64,000 nucleotides of DNA, from contig CAVXGR010000018.1 of NCBI GenBank assembly GCA_963761335.1, forward strand, positions 832,001 to 896,000, given 5' to 3'. Positions 23,865-45,142 of this stretch are shown one piece after another. Numbering within the stretch: position 1 is the stretch's first letter; every line of letters starts with the position of its first letter. A program made the position numbers and the translations under genes. A model generated the notes under the pieces. That model saw only the letters and a program-made list of their open reading frames with translations, made no database searches and was not told where the DNA came from. Origin of the DNA: an uncultured delta proteobacterium (GTDB lineage: Bacteria > Desulfobacterota > Binatia > HRBIN30 > BPIQ01).

Positions 23865-24569
23865 ATGATTCGCAAGGCGGGTAGCTGTCTCGTTTACGTG
23901 TGCTTGGTCGTGGCGATGCTGGGCTGCGGCCACAACGGTGGTGTCGTCGCCGGCCTCACCGGGCCGGAGCCGGCGCCGGATTCTCCGGTGGTGACCGGAG
24001 GCGTGTTGGCCCCCAACGGCGAGCTCGCCTACGCGCCGTCGCTCCTGCAGCGCTTCGCGGATCTCGTCCTGCCTACGGCGAGGGCGCTCGACCCCCGCGT
24101 GACCAACATCGGTGCCGGCGTCAACGTCGTCTTCGAGCAGCTCTACGACACCTCGACGCCCGGGCAGTTCGAGGAGGTGCGCCTCAGCAGCAGTCCGACC
24201 AATCTGAGCGGCCGCTTTGCGGTCGCCATTCCGGACTACATCGTCATTGGCGCCTGCCCGCCTCTCATGCTCAAGGTCGGTGAAGGCCCGACCCTGACGC
24301 GGGCCCTGGTCTACGACCAGAGCGATCAGGACGTCCGTCCGGAGAGCGAGGCGGTGGTGCGCCTGATCTTCTCTCTGCTCGCCGATCGACCCGCGGTCGG
24401 GATCTGCGATTTCTCCGCGGACGAGATCGCGCAGCTGACCGCCATGGTCGAGGACGATGCCGCCTCCACCTTCGGCGACAGCGTGCAGGACCTCAACGAC
24501 CGCGTCGAGCAGCTCGCCGCCGCCGACCCGGACGTGGTGAACGCCCTGAACGCCTTTGCCGGTCGCTAG
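23865..24569 (+). CDS. Hypothetical lipoprotein
   Basis: SD GAGGT, then MIRKAGSCLVYVCLVVAMLG-C lipobox and an acidic mature region. Confidence 0.7.
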   Translation: MIRKAGSCLVYVCLVVAMLGCGHNGGVVAGLTGPEPAPDSPVVTGGVLAPNGELAYAPSLLQRFADLVLPTARALDPRVTNIGAGVNVVFEQLYDTSTPGQFEEVRLSSSPTNLSGRFAVAIPDYIVIGACPPLMLKVGEGPTLTRALVYDQSDQDVRPESEAVVRLIFSLLADRPAVGICDFSADEIAQLTAMVEDDAASTFGDSVQDLNDRVEQLAAADPDVVNALNAFAGR

Positions 24570-24668: not shown

Positions 24669-24698
24669 TTGACAAATATTGGAAGCTCAGTCCATACT
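24669..24698 (+). promoter_or_regulatory. sigma-70-type promoter for the cohesin/dockerin operon
   Basis: TTGACA-N18-CATACT in an AT-rich intergenic patch. Confidence 0.6.
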
Positions 24699-24799
24699 GC
24701 GGCGCACTTTCGGCAGGGATGTATGCCGGGGTCGCGCGTCAGTGGGCCGGGACGTGGGCGGTCAAAGTTGTGGTTCAGTAAGTAGGAGAGAAACGGACT

Positions 24800-26251
24800 A
24801 TGCGACGACTCGGACTTCACGCGGCGATGGCTGCCACTGCCCTGCTGATGGCAGCCCAAATGGTCGCCGCGCAGATCCCTGCAGATACCTGTACGGCCTT
24901 TCAGTCCAGTGTTGAGTTCAGCCTGGAGTGTCCGATCGACAACCCGCCCTCCACCTGTGTGGACGATGGCCTCGGTGCCCAGGCGGTGGTCTCCGCGGAC
25001 GTGGACGGCGACGGCATCCCCGACCTGGTGATCGCCAACAACGAATCGGACAACGTCAGCGTTCTCTACGGCAACGGCGACGGGACCTTCGTCGAGCCGC
25101 CCGTCAACGTCGAGGCCTTCTTCGGCCCCTCTGCCGTGGCTGTGGCGGACATGAACCGGGACGGCAAACGCGACATCGTCGTCGCCCACGACTTCGACAG
25201 CAACGTGGCAATTCTCTTGCAGGGCGCCACGCGCGACAGCTTCACTCTGGGAGGCGACCTGGGCACCGGCGACGGACCGGAGGGATTAGTGGTGGCCGAC
25301 TTCAACGGCGACGGCTTTCCCGACGCCGCCACCGCCAATTACAGCGACGACAACAGCACGGTCTCGGTTCTGCTGGGTGCCGGCGACGGGACCTTCATGT
25401 CGCGGGCCGACTACATGACCTCCACTGAGTCTTTTGTCGGGCCCTTCGCGCTCGCCGTCGCCGACTTGAACCGCGACGGCTTTCTCGACTTGGCGGTCGC
25501 CAACGCCGACGATTCACCGAGCAGTGTCGGCGTCCTCTTGGGGGCCGGCGACGGCAACTTCGACCTGCTCTCGACCTTCCCGGTCGGCCGCGACCTCGGC
25601 GGGCCGGTTTCCATTGCGATAGCGGATTTCAACATCGACAATATTCCCGACGTGGTGACCGCCAACGAGGACGACTTCACGGTGTCGGTGCTGCTCGGAC
25701 AGGGCGATGGGCAGCTGGGAACCAAGACCGACATCGAGGTGGGGATCAGCCCGGAAGCAGTTGCCGTGTCGGATCTGAACCTCGACGGCCGTCCCGACAT
25801 CGCGGTGGCCAACTCGCTGGCGGACAGCGACGGAGTGACGGTCCTGCGCGGCGATGGCTCCGGAGCCTTTCTGGCCGGCGATGCCGGCGGTTGTGCGGAT
25901 TCGGGCAATTTCGCCATCGGCGGCTTTCTTCCCACCGGCATCGCGATCGGGGATTTCAATCGCAACGGGAAGCATGATATTGCTACCGCGAACAGCGATG
26001 ACCCTTCAATGGCGGTGTCCGTATTGCTCAACAGCGGCAATCTGCTCCTGGGCGACAGCAACGCCGACGGCAGCCTCACCACCGCCGACGTCGACCAGGT
26101 CGTTCCGGAGATATTTGACGGAGACGGGTCAAACGTGATTACTGTGGCGGGTGGAACGACGCAATCGGGGCCAGGAGTAGATGGGAACAAAGATCATGTC
26201 ATCAGCGCAGCGGACATTTTGGCAGTCGCGACCATCGTGGTCGGCGGGTGA
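24800..26251 (+). CDS. Secreted FG-GAP repeat (beta-propeller) protein with C-terminal dockerin-like domain
   Basis: SD AGGAG, signal peptide, about seven 'ADxNxDG.PD...AN' repeats. C-terminal duplicated Ca-loop/helix 'GDSNADGSLTTADVDQV...VDGNKDHVISAADILAV'. Confidence 0.85.
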   Translation: MRRLGLHAAMAATALLMAAQMVAAQIPADTCTAFQSSVEFSLECPIDNPPSTCVDDGLGAQAVVSADVDGDGIPDLVIANNESDNVSVLYGNGDGTFVEPPVNVEAFFGPSAVAVADMNRDGKRDIVVAHDFDSNVAILLQGATRDSFTLGGDLGTGDGPEGLVVADFNGDGFPDAATANYSDDNSTVSVLLGAGDGTFMSRADYMTSTESFVGPFALAVADLNRDGFLDLAVANADDSPSSVGVLLGAGDGNFDLLSTFPVGRDLGGPVSIAIADFNIDNIPDVVTANEDDFTVSVLLGQGDGQLGTKTDIEVGISPEAVAVSDLNLDGRPDIAVANSLADSDGVTVLRGDGSGAFLAGDAGGCADSGNFAIGGFLPTGIAIGDFNRNGKHDIATANSDDPSMAVSVLLNSGNLLLGDSNADGSLTTADVDQVVPEIFDGDGSNVITVAGGTTQSGPGVDGNKDHVISAADILAVATIVVGG

Positions 26252-26276
26252 AAACCCCAACGAGGAGGAGAGACCC

Positions 26277-27254
26277 ATGACAGTTTGGATGGCTCGGGTG
26301 CTTGCGGTGGCGGCGGGGGCCCTTCTGGTAGGTGCCGGCGCAAGCTACGCGCAGCTCGCGCAGTGCGCAGGGGACGGATGCGTCAACGTCTCGGTTGTCA
26401 GTCCGGCGGGCGGCCCCTTTGCCGTGGGCGACACGCTCACTGTCGGGGTGAACTTCGCGCAGGGCACTGGAGACACTCCGCCCGGCGGACGCGGTGATGT
26501 CGCGGCGATTGCCTTCACTCTCGCCATTCCCAATCTGGAGCTCGCCGATTGCAGCAGCCCGGATGCGAATGGGCTCACCCCCGCGTTCGATGTGTCCTCG
26601 GTATCGGATACGTATCGGGTCGTGATCGAGAACACCCAGTGCGTCGATGCCACTCGGACCCCTCCGCTCGACCGCACGCATTGCCTGTGCCCGACGCGAG
26701 AGGGTGACACACGCGATCCGTTCATCAACGTGGTGGTGTTCGGCCCGAAGGATCTGCCGACCCCAGGGGCTGGATCCGTCACTATTCCTCCGCTGCCGGC
26801 GAGCGGCAAGCTGCTCGACGTCAACCTGAAGGTCTCCGCCGACGCCACCGGGACGAGCTCGGCGCTTCACCTCTACAACGAGGTGAGCGATGCCGCGGCA
26901 CCGACCTTCGGTGCGCTCCTGTCGATTGGCGACACCCAGGCGGTCGACGTCACCGGCTGCCGGGGGCCAGGCGAGAGCATATCCTCGTGCACCGATCGCT
27001 CCGGGCAGTCCAACGTGACCACAGTGGACGGCCAGGTCGCCATCACCGGCACCGTCTCCTCGTGCATCGGCGACTGCAACAACGATTGCGAGATCAGCCT
27101 CCTCGAGTTGCAGCAGGCCCTGAATTTCTTCGTCAGCGATACGGAGCCGACGACTTGCCCCTCGTACGGCTCTTCGGTCAGCTTGCTCAACCTTCAAAAG
27201 GCCCTCAACGTGTTTGTTGGCCTGAACGGGGTGTGTCCACAGCCCTGTCCCTGA
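26277..27254 (+). CDS. Secreted Cys-rich protein: cohesin-like beta-sandwich plus Cys-bracketed dockerin-like C-terminus
   Basis: SD GAGGAGGAG, signal peptide. Strands 'VGDTLTVGVNF', 'VAAIAFTL', 'GKLLDVNLKV', 'DGQVAI'. Tail 'CIGDCNNDCEISLLELQQALN...VSLLNLQKALN'. Confidence 0.7.
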   Translation: MTVWMARVLAVAAGALLVGAGASYAQLAQCAGDGCVNVSVVSPAGGPFAVGDTLTVGVNFAQGTGDTPPGGRGDVAAIAFTLAIPNLELADCSSPDANGLTPAFDVSSVSDTYRVVIENTQCVDATRTPPLDRTHCLCPTREGDTRDPFINVVVFGPKDLPTPGAGSVTIPPLPASGKLLDVNLKVSADATGTSSALHLYNEVSDAAAPTFGALLSIGDTQAVDVTGCRGPGESISSCTDRSGQSNVTTVDGQVAITGTVSSCIGDCNNDCEISLLELQQALNFFVSDTEPTTCPSYGSSVSLLNLQKALNVFVGLNGVCPQPCP

Positions 27255-27356
27255 TCGGAATTGCGGCTGAGAGAAACTTTCAACTTGGGCTTTGCAGGAA
27301 CCAGATTGCGACGGAGAGTCGGTTCTTCTAACCGTCACTCGAAGATGGAGGATGAG

Positions 27357-28220
27357 ATGAGAGCATTCAAGGTAGCGGCTTGGACACTTTTGGCGGCGGT
27401 TGTCTCTTGGGCGATGCCGGGCATCGCCGCGGCAACGGTGAGCCTTTCGGTTGGGGATGCTTCCGGACAGCCCGGGGACATGGTGACGGTCGTGGTGTCG
27501 CTGGCGAAGACGGGAAGCGAGAGTGTCGGGTCGATCGCGGGTGTGCTCAACTATCAGGCCAGCACTCCGATCGCGGCGAACGGCACCACGCCGGTTTGTC
27601 AGGCGCTCGTCACCGTGGATCTGAGCAAGTTCGGCTTCCTTCCCACCGGGTGCACGGCCGATTCGTCCTGCACCTCCGTGAAGGCGACTTTGCTCAATAG
27701 CGCCGATACGGCGGCGGGTGATGTGTTCCAGTGCACTGTGGCCATCGCCGCCGATGCGACCCCAGGATCCTACGATCTCATGCTGACCGGCGCATCGTTT
27801 ACCGACCCCGCAGGGACGGTGGAGACTCAGATCGACGACGCAACCGGCACCATCATGGTCTTGGCGCCGACCGAGACGCCGCTGCCGACGGAGACGAGCA
27901 CCATTACGGTGACGCCGACCGAGACCAACACGCCGGAAGCAACCAACACGGCACTGCCGCCGACCGAGACCCCGATTCCCGCGGATACGAACACGCCGAA
28001 CCCGACGGCGACCGTTCCCGCGGCGACAGCGACTCCGGTGAAGAGTTCCACGCCGCTCCCGACGGCTACCGTGCCCGTCAATCCGACGAGCACCGCCATA
28101 CCCCCGGGTTTCCTCGAGGATGACGGCTGCCAGATCAGTGCAAGCGGCGGCACCGGGAATCCGTGGCTGTTGCTGATTCCGGCTGCGGTTCTGATCGGAG
28201 TGCGTCGCCGGCGCCGCTGA
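27357..28220 (+). CDS. Cohesin-domain surface anchor protein (signal peptide, cohesin, Pro/Thr stalk, Cys-TM-Arg sorting tail)
   Basis: SD GGAGGA. Cohesin pattern 'LSVGDASGQPGDMVTVVVSL...VGSIAGVLNY...GDVFQCTVAIAADATPGSYDL...GTIMV'. Tail 'DDGCQISASGGTGNPWLLLIPAAVLIGVRRRRR'. Confidence 0.8.
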   Translation: MRAFKVAAWTLLAAVVSWAMPGIAAATVSLSVGDASGQPGDMVTVVVSLAKTGSESVGSIAGVLNYQASTPIAANGTTPVCQALVTVDLSKFGFLPTGCTADSSCTSVKATLLNSADTAAGDVFQCTVAIAADATPGSYDLMLTGASFTDPAGTVETQIDDATGTIMVLAPTETPLPTETSTITVTPTETNTPEATNTALPPTETPIPADTNTPNPTATVPAATATPVKSSTPLPTATVPVNPTSTAIPPGFLEDDGCQISASGGTGNPWLLLIPAAVLIGVRRRRR

Positions 28221-28253
28221 TCCACAAGAGCCGTAAGCTAACAGTCTACTCAG

Positions 28254-28281
28254 AAAGGGGGCCAGAAATGGCCCCCTTTTT
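28254..28281 (+). terminator. Rho-independent terminator
   Basis: AAAGGGGGCCA-GAAA-TGGCCCCCTTT followed by further Ts. Confidence 0.9.
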
Positions 28282-28326
28282 GCTTTCTATGTCAGGCTCC
28301 GGAGGACCCGCTCAATTCGCCCGCTC

Positions 28327-30519
28327 TTGATCTTTGCGCTTCTGCTGATCGGCATACCCAGTGCCGGAGCGCAGCCGTATTCGGCGGAGATGCTGCCGAT
28401 GGGGAGGGGGGTCTCCCCGATGGTGACGGCTACCCTGGGAGCCGGGGGCAGTACCCACAGACGCGCACTGTCAGCGGCATCGCCGCCGGTGAGCCCAGCG
28501 GCACCGGCGCTGGTGGCGGTGCTCTCCTCCGCGGAGGCCGTCCGCACGCTCACCGATGCCGGTGTTCCGGTGGCTGCGCAGCTCGGGCGCGCCGTGTCCA
28601 TCATCCGCGGCGACTCCGACGTCGTCGAGCGCCTCAGCCGCATCCCGGAGGTTCTCTCGGTAAGACTGCCGCAGATGCTGCGCCTCCAGCTCGACGTACC
28701 CGGGCAGGGCTATGGAGCGGTGAAGATCCAGCAGACAGAAGGCCTCAGCGGCGCCGGCACGCTCTTCGGTATCATCGACAGCGGTATCGACTACACGCAT
28801 CTGGACCTCCGCCACGCCGACGGAACCACTCGCATCAAGGCGCTCTGGGATCAGCTGGACACGAGCTACGCCGACTCCGGGGGCACCATCGGCAGCCCGC
28901 CGCCGATGAACCAGGATGGATCGCCCGGGCGGGGGACGGTCTACACGGAGGAGCAGATCAACACCGCCCTCGACGGCTCCGGTATCGTCAACAGTGTCGA
29001 TCTGGTCGGTCACGGAACCCTGGTCGCCAGCATCGCCGCCGGCAATGGTCAGGCGACGGGGGGAGGGGAACCGTCCGGTGTCTACCTCGGCGTCGCTCCG
29101 CAGGCGGATATCATCGCCGTGCGCGCTGGAGGCGTGGACAGATCGGACACCAACATCAATGGCGACGTCATCGGCGGCCTTCAATGGATCGACGGAATGG
29201 CCACGGCCCTGGGCGAGCCAGTGGTCGTGAACATGAGCTTTGGCGGTCAGGTCGGCGCACACGATGGCACCACGCCGGAGGAGATCGCCATCGATTCGTT
29301 CGCACAACGATCTGGCCGCGCGGTGTCGGTCTCGGCAGGGAACGACGGCACCCAGGCCATTCACGCCAGTGGCTCGACTCGCAACACGGCAACCCTCGAC
29401 GTCTTCTATAGCGGGCAGAGCCCCAGGATCGTGGTCGACTGCTGGATACCCGGCTCCGACATCGTCGATCTCGGCTTCACCGATCCGGATGGCGCGGGAG
29501 TCCTCGACGCCAACGTCGCCGAGGGCCTCTGTGCCGTCACGCGCGGCAGCGTCAACAAGGTGTCCACCTGTCTCGGTGCGCCGAGTGCGCTCAACGGGGA
29601 TCGTGAGGTGATCTTCTTGGTCGAGCCGCTGACCAACTCGACACCGATTTCCTCCGGCGATTGGAAGTTCTACCTGCGCGACGAGGGTGGGGTTCAGGAC
29701 GGGACCTTCGACTGCTGGGAAGCCTCCCTGGAGCCGTTCACCAGCAACGTCGATCGCAGGGTCACCATCGGGCAGCCGGGAACGGCCAGAGGCGCGATCA
29801 CCGCCGGAGCCTGGTCGGGGCGCAGCTCGTGGCCGAGTCTCCAGGGCGAGACCGTCAAGGAAGGGCTGACGATCGGGGCCTTGGCGGCGTTCTCCAGTGT
29901 CGGGCCAACGCGCGACGGTCGCTTGAAGCCGGAGCTGACGGCCCCCGGCGAGTGGGTCCTGGGCGCCTGGTCGATTGCCGACGGCAGCGGCTCCGGTATC
30001 GCCGCCGTTCCCCCGGACCCGACGCGGGTCGCATCCGACGGCGTCCATGTGGCCGCGCGCGGTACCAGCTTCTCCGCCCCACAGGTCGCCGGAGCGATCG
30101 ACCTGCTGTTCGAGCTCGATCCGTCTCTGACGGCCGCCGACCTGCGCTCTCTGCTGACGCAGAGCGCCAGCGCCGACGAGTTCACCGGAGACGTCCCCAA
30201 TGACGATTGGGGCTTCGGCAAGCTCGACGTGCAGCAGGCGATTGCCGTCCTGCCCACGGCGCTGGCGACCTCGCCTACGGTCGAGCCGACCTCGACGCCG
30301 ACGGCGACCTCGATCCCCGCGACTGCATCGCCCACCACCACCGCGACGCACACGCTCATCCCCTCGCCAACGGCCAGCCTTCCTCGGTCGTCGGGTGGCG
30401 GTGGGAGCGGGTGCGCCGTGCGCGGCTCGGGAGGGAGGGGTGGCGGCCCACTTGCCCTCCTGGCGGCGCTCGCCGCCGTGGGGATTTCGTTTCGCCGGCG
30501 ACGGCAAACGCAATCTTGA
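28327..30519 (+). CDS. Subtilisin-like S8 serine peptidase with mid-domain insertion, Pro/Thr stalk and Cys-TM-Arg sorting tail
   Basis: Triad 'GIIDSG', 'GHGTLVASIAAG', 'GTSFSAPQVAG', plus 'SAGNDG'. Tail 'GSGCAV...PLALLAALAAVGISFRRRR'. Start codon uncertain. Confidence 0.9.
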   Translation: MIFALLLIGIPSAGAQPYSAEMLPMGRGVSPMVTATLGAGGSTHRRALSAASPPVSPAAPALVAVLSSAEAVRTLTDAGVPVAAQLGRAVSIIRGDSDVVERLSRIPEVLSVRLPQMLRLQLDVPGQGYGAVKIQQTEGLSGAGTLFGIIDSGIDYTHLDLRHADGTTRIKALWDQLDTSYADSGGTIGSPPPMNQDGSPGRGTVYTEEQINTALDGSGIVNSVDLVGHGTLVASIAAGNGQATGGGEPSGVYLGVAPQADIIAVRAGGVDRSDTNINGDVIGGLQWIDGMATALGEPVVVNMSFGGQVGAHDGTTPEEIAIDSFAQRSGRAVSVSAGNDGTQAIHASGSTRNTATLDVFYSGQSPRIVVDCWIPGSDIVDLGFTDPDGAGVLDANVAEGLCAVTRGSVNKVSTCLGAPSALNGDREVIFLVEPLTNSTPISSGDWKFYLRDEGGVQDGTFDCWEASLEPFTSNVDRRVTIGQPGTARGAITAGAWSGRSSWPSLQGETVKEGLTIGALAAFSSVGPTRDGRLKPELTAPGEWVLGAWSIADGSGSGIAAVPPDPTRVASDGVHVAARGTSFSAPQVAGAIDLLFELDPSLTAADLRSLLTQSASADEFTGDVPNDDWGFGKLDVQQAIAVLPTALATSPTVEPTSTPTATSIPATASPTTTATHTLIPSPTASLPRSSGGGGSGCAVRGSGGRGGGPLALLAALAAVGISFRRRRQTQS

Positions 30520-44512: not shown

Positions 44513-45142
44513 TCAGCGGAAGCTCACCACCATGATCTGCAACAGGACATTCCCCGCGGCGTGATACAGGATCGGCGCGGCGATGCTGTCGCTGCGCTCG
44601 CGGAGCCAGCCGGCGAAGAGGCCGAAGAAGAAGACCTTGAGCTGGGTGATGTCGCCGTAGATGAGGTGGCAGAGGGCGAAGAGCAGTGCCGCCGCCGGCA
44701 GGCCCCAGCCCCAGCGGGCTCCGAGCAGCTGGTAGGGGCGGCCCCAGGCCTTGTCGAAGCTGGTCTGCAGGTAGCCGCGGAAGAAGAACTCCTCCGGCAG
44801 CGCCACGTTGATGAGCTGGCCGAGAATCAGCAGGTGCAGGTTCGCAGGAAAGCGCAGGTGGAACTGCGCCTGCTGCACCAGGCGGCCGAAGAGATAGTGG
44901 CCGGCGAGGTAGCCTCCGAGGACGATTGCGGCGACGATCAGGTGAAAGCGCAGCGAGCCGAGCCGCCAGCGCAAGCCGTAGTCGTCGAAGGATCGCTTGG
45001 TGACGACGATCAGGCCGAAGGGGACCAGCAGCCACATCGCCGAGTCCCACAGCGCCAGCGGCAGGGTGACCGCCAATACCGCCAGGCCTTCGAGCCCCGG
45101 GAGCTGCCCTCGCAGGGGACGGGCTGCGCCTTCGTCGGTCAC
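44513..45142 (-). CDS. CPBP/Abi (type II CAAX) intramembrane glutamic endopeptidase, myxosortase-like candidate
   Basis: 'LPEEFFFRGYLQ' (EExxxR), 'LFALCH' (FxxxH), 'WLRERSDS...LYHAAGN' (HxxxN). Confidence 0.88.
   Translation of the reverse strand: MTDEGAARPLRGQLPGLEGLAVLAVTLPLALWDSAMWLLVPFGLIVVTKRSFDDYGLRWRLGSLRFHLIVAAIVLGGYLAGHYLFGRLVQQAQFHLRFPANLHLLILGQLINVALPEEFFFRGYLQTSFDKAWGRPYQLLGARWGWGLPAAALLFALCHLIYGDITQLKVFFFGLFAGWLRERSDSIAAPILYHAAGNVLLQIMVVSFR

Follow-up and report, generated by a model that had tools for sequence, protein, structure and literature searches.

A three-gene operon for secreted cohesin and dockerin proteins lies in a 64,000-nucleotide stretch of the genome of an uncultured delta proteobacterium (assembly GCA_963761335.1, contig CAVXGR010000018.1, positions 832,001 to 896,000 of the forward strand; the whole stretch is called the window below), whose relatives are labelled Candidatus Binatia or Binatota. 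Our data make it probable that, within one order of Candidatus Binatia, this operon forms the conserved centre of a kit for Ca-dependent surface display through cohesin-dockerin bonds. Such a kit would most likely coat the cell with exchangeable proteins that serve in adhesion, proteolysis and scavenging, rather than form a complex that degrades cellulose. This order-wide variant of cohesin-dockerin display is real and apparently unpublished. The three open reading frames (ORFs) lie on the same strand, each begins with a hydrophobic N-terminus, and they encode the following proteins:

24800..26251, + strand: gene 1 (483 amino acids, aa), secreted propeller of seven FG-GAP repeats with a C-terminal dockerin (approximately 26045 to 26248)
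26277..27254, + strand: gene 2 (325 aa), secreted monovalent adaptor with a divergent, Cys-rich cohesin and a private-type dockerin
27357..28220, + strand: gene 3 (287 aa), anchoring cohesin (27432 to 27866) with a Pro/Thr stalk and a MYXO-CTERM-type Cys-transmembrane-Arg (Cys-TM-Arg) tail

Conserved operon, cohesin folds and dockerin tails

The gene-2 cohesin was found in 51 of the 52 genomes of the order, including all of the high-quality ones (33/33), mostly as a single copy. Since a 251-genome sample of the phylum held only one relative with gene 2, the searches were made at the level of the class and the order, and among 191 genomes of the class outside the order the only match came via the tail. 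At 29 loci, a propeller-dockerin gene lies upstream in 28 cases and a cohesin gene downstream in 27; as exceptions, one locus stops at a contig end and one has a cohesin lipoprotein instead. The conservation of the operon across relatives, put forward as a check in an earlier reading of the window made from the letters alone (the original prediction), is borne out by the trio being syntenic at 26 of these 29 loci, with one to three cohesins on the anchors of the relatives. Dockerin and anchor-cohesin profiles match all 29 order genomes scanned (29/29) and only 4 and 6, respectively, of the 191 other genomes of the class. A first look at three families gave 50-206 dockerin candidates per genome, of which 24-28 of the 28 scored pass.

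Comparison of AlphaFold models with solved structures supports the earlier assignment of the two beta-sandwiches to the cohesins, and not to other immunoglobulin-like (Ig) or carbohydrate-binding module (CBM) folds; the models match the nine-stranded jelly-roll of solved cohesins. For the gene-3 domain, the best score was Z 17.0 (root-mean-square deviation, rmsd, 1.7; 129 residues aligned) and the top 20 rows are all cohesins. For the gene-2 domain (residues approximately 30-260), the best cohesin reached Z 13.5 (rmsd 2.6, 138 aligned), the top 19 rows are all cohesins, the next unrelated row has Z 8.9, and Foldseek gave E 1e-8. The Pfam part of the same check did not follow the structures: gene 3 scored 19.7-22.1 bits against the Cohesin family (PF00963), below the cut-off of 24.1 that its paralogues elsewhere in the genome pass, gene 2 has no match in Pfam or NCBIfam, and neither tail is recovered by PF00404. 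The gene-2 cohesin carries large Cys-rich insertions, and its family resembles that of gene 3 weakly in a profile-profile comparison (probability 52%). A single-sequence scan of the genome contigs with gene 2 gave no match, an alignment-based scan did, and the family now counts 79 representatives at 50% identity. With one cohesin and one dockerin, gene 2 has the architecture of a monovalent adaptor scaffoldin.

In gene 1, the propeller (FG-GAP_3, E 5e-51, seven stretches in the Pfam scan) is followed by two Ca-loop/helix repeats split by a long insert, with both loops and both helices present and recognition residues of the AA type. Elsewhere in the genome, long-insert dockerins were likewise seen only on FG-GAP proteins (also L075). 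In the gene-2 tail, both helices are present along with the first Ca loop. A type I-like dockerin is characterised by a duplicated Ca loop and helix with no E helix in front. Both tails are called dockerins because of their homologues, which are regular two-repeat, Cys-flanked modules, a custom hidden Markov model (HMM) and the complex model described below; in the gene-2 family, the homologues retain the second loop.

Proposed docking partners and alternative arrangements

We propose that all three proteins would be exported by Sec, as their hydrophobic N-termini suggest. By analogy with Myxococcus, where proteins on the MYXO-CTERM route are described as being cleaved and brought to the surface by type II secretion, with a proposed lipidation (PMC11980579), the gene-3 protein would be lipidated at its Cys, cut by a myxosortase and secreted by type II secretion to the surface, its cohesin being held away from the surface on the Pro/Thr stalk. 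In this genome, the gene-2 protein would then act as a monovalent, type-switching adaptor, with its private dockerin in the gene-3 cohesin and its own cohesin taking the dockerin of the gene-1 propeller and perhaps other cargo of the AA type. The main docking sites of the remaining approximately 60 dockerin proteins are probably separate lipoprotein scaffoldins that carry three or four cohesins.

The upper joint of this arrangement is supported by structure prediction. The original prediction had suggested AlphaFold-type modelling of the cohesin-dockerin pairs, and for the gene-2 cohesin with the gene-1 dockerin the predicted complex reached an ipSAE of 0.84 against 0.02 for the best of three controls, a mark for this score being attained by 116/157 solved complexes and 2/215 mismatched pairs. 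The runs agree in at least 86% of the contacts, and the partner has a predicted local distance difference test (pLDDT) value of at least 55. On gene 2, the contacts are residues 51-54, 91-94, 126-131, 135-145 and 183-201, among them residues invariant in 30 orthologues that had been identified before the complex was predicted. The model puts the dockerin on this invariant face, the canonical dockerin-binding face of cohesins (strands 8-3-6-5). On the tail side, the contacts cluster at the AA pair in the second repeat and where the first helix ends, as in the usual type I mode. These results suggest that the gene-2 cohesin accepts the gene-1 dockerin.

For the lower joint, we infer that the gene-2 tail plugs into the gene-3 socket because the dockerin and anchor motifs co-vary. 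At recognition positions 10-11, 31 of the 84 dockerin loops of the genome carry AA and a single one, that of gene 2, carries LL (1/84). With motifs chosen post hoc and related loci that are not independent, all 25 loci with a general-type tail (25/25) are followed by an anchor that has the common strand-3 motif, which is absent from the anchor at all three loci with a private tail (3/3, counting the present one); a further locus, judged by eye, is consistent. In two of the private-tail loci, this tail belongs to an extra cohesin-dockerin gene. Relatives in which such an extra gene and one or two anchors are inserted into the operon are L059:4900-7675, L057:4948-7676 and L035:2-1390, and a strongly divergent tail type was seen in L057 and P0062. 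The dockerin and cohesin trees have poor resolution and long branches, and we gave no weight to the branch of the cohesin tree (support 87) that joins gene 3 to another private anchor.

Besides this limit of the co-variation, several points weigh against the proposed docking. The score of the complex may stem from its resemblance to solved cohesin-dockerin structures, and the test is also passed by close cousins, which leaves little information on specificity. Under a strict code, the binding face of gene 2 would not be expected to stay invariant, as it does, among genomes with differing dockerin codes. The gene-2 tail has lost its second Ca loop and is modelled with a pLDDT under 60. When the tails of genes 1 and 2 were searched by themselves, Pfam gave no match at E 1e-3, and neither tail belongs to the 47 Dockerin_1 (PF00404) matches of the genome, 25 of which exceed the cut-off; searches of their profiles against PDB sequences returned calmodulin and other EF-hand proteins, and no dockerins, in the top 60 rows.

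These last results would also be in agreement with a locus without any assembly, in which the tails would be independent, EF-hand-like caps that bind Ca and the domains of cohesin fold would be spacers without a docking role, EF-hand proteins being the first PDB matches and a Pfam match lacking for the tails alone. We regard this as highly improbable, given 25 Dockerin_1 and 8 Cohesin matches above the Pfam cut-offs in the genome, the expansion of both modules in the same genomes of the order and their rarity outside it, the passing score of the predicted gene-2/gene-1 complex, and a peptidase tail that alternates between dockerin and MYXO-CTERM (see below).

The invariant face bears on another arrangement, in which all dockerin proteins, those of genes 1 and 2 included, would plug directly into anchored cohesins, the gene-2 domain being cargo with a non-dockerin ligand, that is, an adhesin or a structural module. 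Its indifference to the dockerin code of the genome and its large Cys-rich insertions would fit such a role, as would the lower-scoring cohesin-like folds of adhesins and pilins (rows 20 onward, Z under 9) and the anchors of the relatives, which, with their one to three cohesins, share the general code with both tails. The predicted complex, on the other hand, puts the dockerin exactly on the invariant face, and the gene-3 cohesin of this genome lacks the common motif beside a private tail. Moreover, fusions of a propeller, a gene-1-type dockerin, a gene-2-type cohesin and a second dockerin, found in this genome (C12:726385-730494) and in the database proteins P0054 and P0056, place the gene-2-type cohesin right after the gene-1-type dockerin. 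Direct plugging of every dockerin protein appears quite improbable to us. The fusion of this genome (L083, G000:C12:726388-730494) is a frame of 1369 aa that joins FG-GAP repeats to a dockerin with a long insert, a cohesin of the gene-2 type, a Pro/Thr stalk and a dockerin of the AA type.

The original prediction had described a three-tier hierarchy with different tails on genes 1 and 2. The two tail types hold for this genome; as a general hierarchy the claim fails, since in 25 of 27 loci both tails share one lineage-specific dockerin type (families f94-f96). Between the tails of genes 1 and 2 of the same genome the mean identity is 0.66, compared with 0.52-0.55 between genomes (0.52 for the gene-1 tails), and this higher likeness within a genome indicates that most of the order uses one code. 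The three-tier type switch may therefore be special to the family of this genome.

With one code for most of the order, the adaptor could bind its own kind. The gene-2 cohesin would then take its own dockerin type, and subunits would stack head to tail on the anchor into a stalk of variable length, capped by the propeller or by cargo. Chaining would be ancestral to the order and general within it, and the private tail of this genome would limit the chain to one unit. In addition to the shared tail signature, the modelled competence of the gene-2 cohesin for a dockerin, the place of gene 2 in the core, mostly as a single copy, and a gene order of tip, shaft and base are consistent with self-chaining, and ScaH of R. 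flavefaciens is described as a variable-length adaptor in a passage of PMC12270676. On the opposite side stand the uniqueness of the gene-2 tail in this genome and the dozens of cargo dockerins that, under one code, would compete and end the chains early. We judge this mode unlikely. Extended to the whole order, it would give a fibre or extendable stalk held by cohesin-dockerin bonds, with a myxosortase-anchored base, a self-chaining gene-2 shaft and, as cap, either the FG-GAP tip or one of 50-200 dockerin proteins that could replace each other, forming the hub of a non-cellulolytic plug-in surface proteome that rivals the biggest cellulosome inventories; some lineages, including this genome, would have evolved private plug-socket pairs that make the shaft a one-step switch. 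This picture is a speculative one, to which we give a low but appreciable chance. The type-switching adaptor remains our preferred reading for this genome.

Probable surface anchoring and candidate dockerin cargo

The stalk of gene 3 comprises 81 aa, 54% of them Pro and Thr. Its Cys-TM-Arg tail scored 22.5 bits in the genome scan and 18.2 as part of the whole protein against MYXO-CTERM (TIGR03901, cut-off 20), and in the genome scan it is one of 10 tails over the cut-off. The MYXO-CTERM-like anchoring suggested earlier gains support from the finding in the genome of a cognate myxosortase, whose core (44513-45142, - strand) adjoins pilT, and of GspD (561 against a cut-off of 351). A myxosortase-like gene is present in all 52 genomes of the order (52/52), 29 of them over the cut-off. 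A second MYXO-CTERM-anchored cohesin, of the general type, was observed at G000:C11:606409-607402 (- strand), split across two frames by an assembly error or as a pseudogene.

The S8 peptidase encoded downstream of the operon has a MYXO-CTERM tail in this genome and a dockerin in four related loci, at approximately 50% identity; a fifth locus ends early. This swap suggests that MYXO-CTERM and dockerin tails do the same job, surface retention.

An iterated HMM search, partly trained on sequences of this genome, counted 62 dockerin domains, spread over 61 ORFs, and 19 cohesin domains of the anchor type, with none in reversed ORFs. The 61 ORFs agree with the earlier suggestion that other dockerin proteins of the genome could serve as cargo. 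The locus is not self-contained, as had been claimed, since the genome holds further anchor-type cohesins, including two lipoproteins with three and four cohesins over the Pfam cut-off at C18:802753-808768, approximately 50 kb upstream and outside the window. Multi-cohesin scaffoldins as known from cellulosomes occur in the genome and not within this operon. The two lipoproteins are likely the main scaffoldins for cargo of the AA type. They stand in tandem (L001:7754-13769, G000:C18:802753-808768), with a shared N-domain and near-identical cohesins on Pro/Thr linkers, and are followed by a dockerin protein. In G076, a similar gene lies directly behind the gene-2 orthologue (L047). Three cohesins together with DUF11 repeats, and no obvious anchor, were seen in two paralogues (L002:6053-10531 and L003:5854-10130), each of which stands behind a dockerin gene; the L003 copy is broken by frameshifts.

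The cargo was surveyed in 60 of the 61 dockerin ORFs (one partial ORF was left out) with Pfam at E 1e-5; 28 have a Pfam family and 32 have none. The families are FG-GAP, NHL, Kelch, RCC1 and other propellers, beta-helices, LamG and DUF11, together with two trypsins, a sorbosone dehydrogenase, a phosphoesterase, MbnP and a multiheme cytochrome. As had been supposed, no carbohydrate-active cargo appeared: glycoside hydrolase and CBM families are absent from the 60 scanned ORFs, one beta-helix ORF giving a pectate-lyase-like match. Membership in the cellulosomes was rejected, as no dockerin-bearing hydrolases occur among these ORFs. The four GH5 ORFs of the genome all lack a dockerin. GH9 was not found in the genome with a search whose control gave a match; the GH48 search gave no match, nor did its control. 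In three relatives, 12 ORFs from 30 loci were retrieved with the custom dockerin profile, many Pfam Dockerin_1 matches there being possibly other Ca loops, and no glycoside hydrolases were found among 11 of these 12 and 3 other cargo ORFs. The multiheme cytochrome c with a dockerin (L112, G000:C21:292636-295260) has nine CxxCH motifs and MtrC-like and Ig matches, and is possibly a plug-in surface electron-transfer protein. The protein of the copper-binding MbnP family (L099, G000:C17:178941-180524) carries a weak dockerin-like module.

Known systems and surroundings of the operon

With the anchoring and monovalent adaptor scaffoldins of cellulosomes (ScaE, ScaC and ScaH of R. flavefaciens; ScaB/ScaC of Acetivibrio), the operon has in common the cohesin fold, an adaptor of one cohesin and one dockerin and a single-cohesin surface anchor, and with cellulosomes at large tens to approximately 200 dockerin proteins per genome and lineage-specific recognition residues (PMC11557425, PMC12270676, PMC12484212). 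Unlike cellulosomes, the kit of the Binatia belongs to a diderm host, uses MYXO-CTERM/myxosortase and lipoprotein anchors in place of sortase or SLH, has disulfide-rich modules and an adaptor cohesin missed by Pfam, and shows no glycoside hydrolase or CBM family among the 60 dockerin ORFs scanned. Contrary to the earlier suggestion of an undescribed system, the concept has a precedent, since a three-tier, non-cellulolytic planctosome has been published as a hypothetical anchor-adaptor-cargo complex of freshwater Planctomycetes, likewise diderm and with peptidases (PMC6461901). The planctosome differs in its lamin-tail domain anchor and adaptor architecture and was proposed from few genes (PMC6461901), whereas the Binatia have an order-wide core operon, much larger cargo sets and two dockerin codes. 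Genome-inferred, multi-cohesin scaffoldin-like proteins with dockerin cargo outside the clostridia are also described for Ca. Stygibacter (PMC8542988), with GH18/GH57 cargo and a CBM-bearing scaffoldin, and for ANME archaea (PMC9012536), where the cargo includes ABC binding proteins; MYXO-CTERM anchoring is not mentioned in the passages on either. The sorting of Myxococcota is alike in the Cys-TM-Arg tail, the single protease with a myxosortase core and type II secretion (PMC11980579; 10.1101/2023.06.07.544157), whereas here the host is of the Binatia and the tail sits on a cohesin, neither "Binatia" nor "cohesin" occurring in the main texts of these two papers.

Within a literature search that covered papers outside subscription, none was found that links Binatota or Binatia with dockerin or cohesin, and none that joins dockerin with MYXO-CTERM; the main text of the Binatota genome paper contains no occurrence of cohesin, cellulosome or dockerin. 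The function of non-cellulosomal cohesins and dockerins has long been a question in the field, and the cases reported mostly concern a handful of isolated genes. In the present case an entire diderm order offers a near-universal core operon, a cohesin family missed by Pfam, tens to approximately 200 dockerin proteins per genome and natural code switching, and with these binding, specificity and chain formation become testable on small recombinant domains. Myxosortase anchoring would extend beyond Myxococcota and Bradymonadales, and designer assemblies could draw on the kit for cohesin-dockerin pairs that are orthogonal and stabilised by disulfides.

The other features of the window that concern the operon are:

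23865..24569, + strand: upstream lipoprotein-like gene, itself without cohesin, paralogue of the N-terminal domain of the multi-cohesin lipoproteins
24669..24698, + strand: sigma-70-like promoter candidate, TTGACA, 18 nucleotides, CATACT (10/12 matches)
28251..28282, + strand: intrinsic terminator-like hairpin with a T run (14 pairs, 8 of them G-C)
28327..30519, + strand: S8 peptidase with MYXO-CTERM tail, downstream past the terminator, with orthologues in four related loci ending in a dockerin
44513..45142, - strand: myxosortase (CPBP intramembrane protease; NF040914, 105.6 bits against a cut-off of 100), likely processing the gene-3 tail

The upstream lipoprotein has 29% identity (E 5e-9) to the N-domain of the multi-cohesin lipoproteins of the genome. 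The GC content at third codon positions is 0.78-0.80 for the three genes, slightly lower than for the flanking lipoprotein (0.88) and peptidase (0.82) and similar to that of fabF (0.81), and the stretch 24800-28220 shows no sign of recent transfer. Contigs of a related strain from one sediment RNA library cover parts of each of the three genes, span the two junctions between them, end at 28238 and leave the flanks with little cover; as they reveal neither strand nor level and may contain DNA, they give a weak hint of operon expression. The ATG of gene 2 is preceded by a GAGGAGG site. The earlier description of a promoter followed by a strong terminator holds for the hairpin, the strongest of 4 found (2.5 expected), and not for the promoter score, as the 1 promoter-type match does not exceed what shuffled sequences give by chance (0.7 ± 0.8); the promoter candidate is plausible because of its position and not its score. 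All three genes were recovered at the coordinates first described, as were the hairpin and the promoter-like site.

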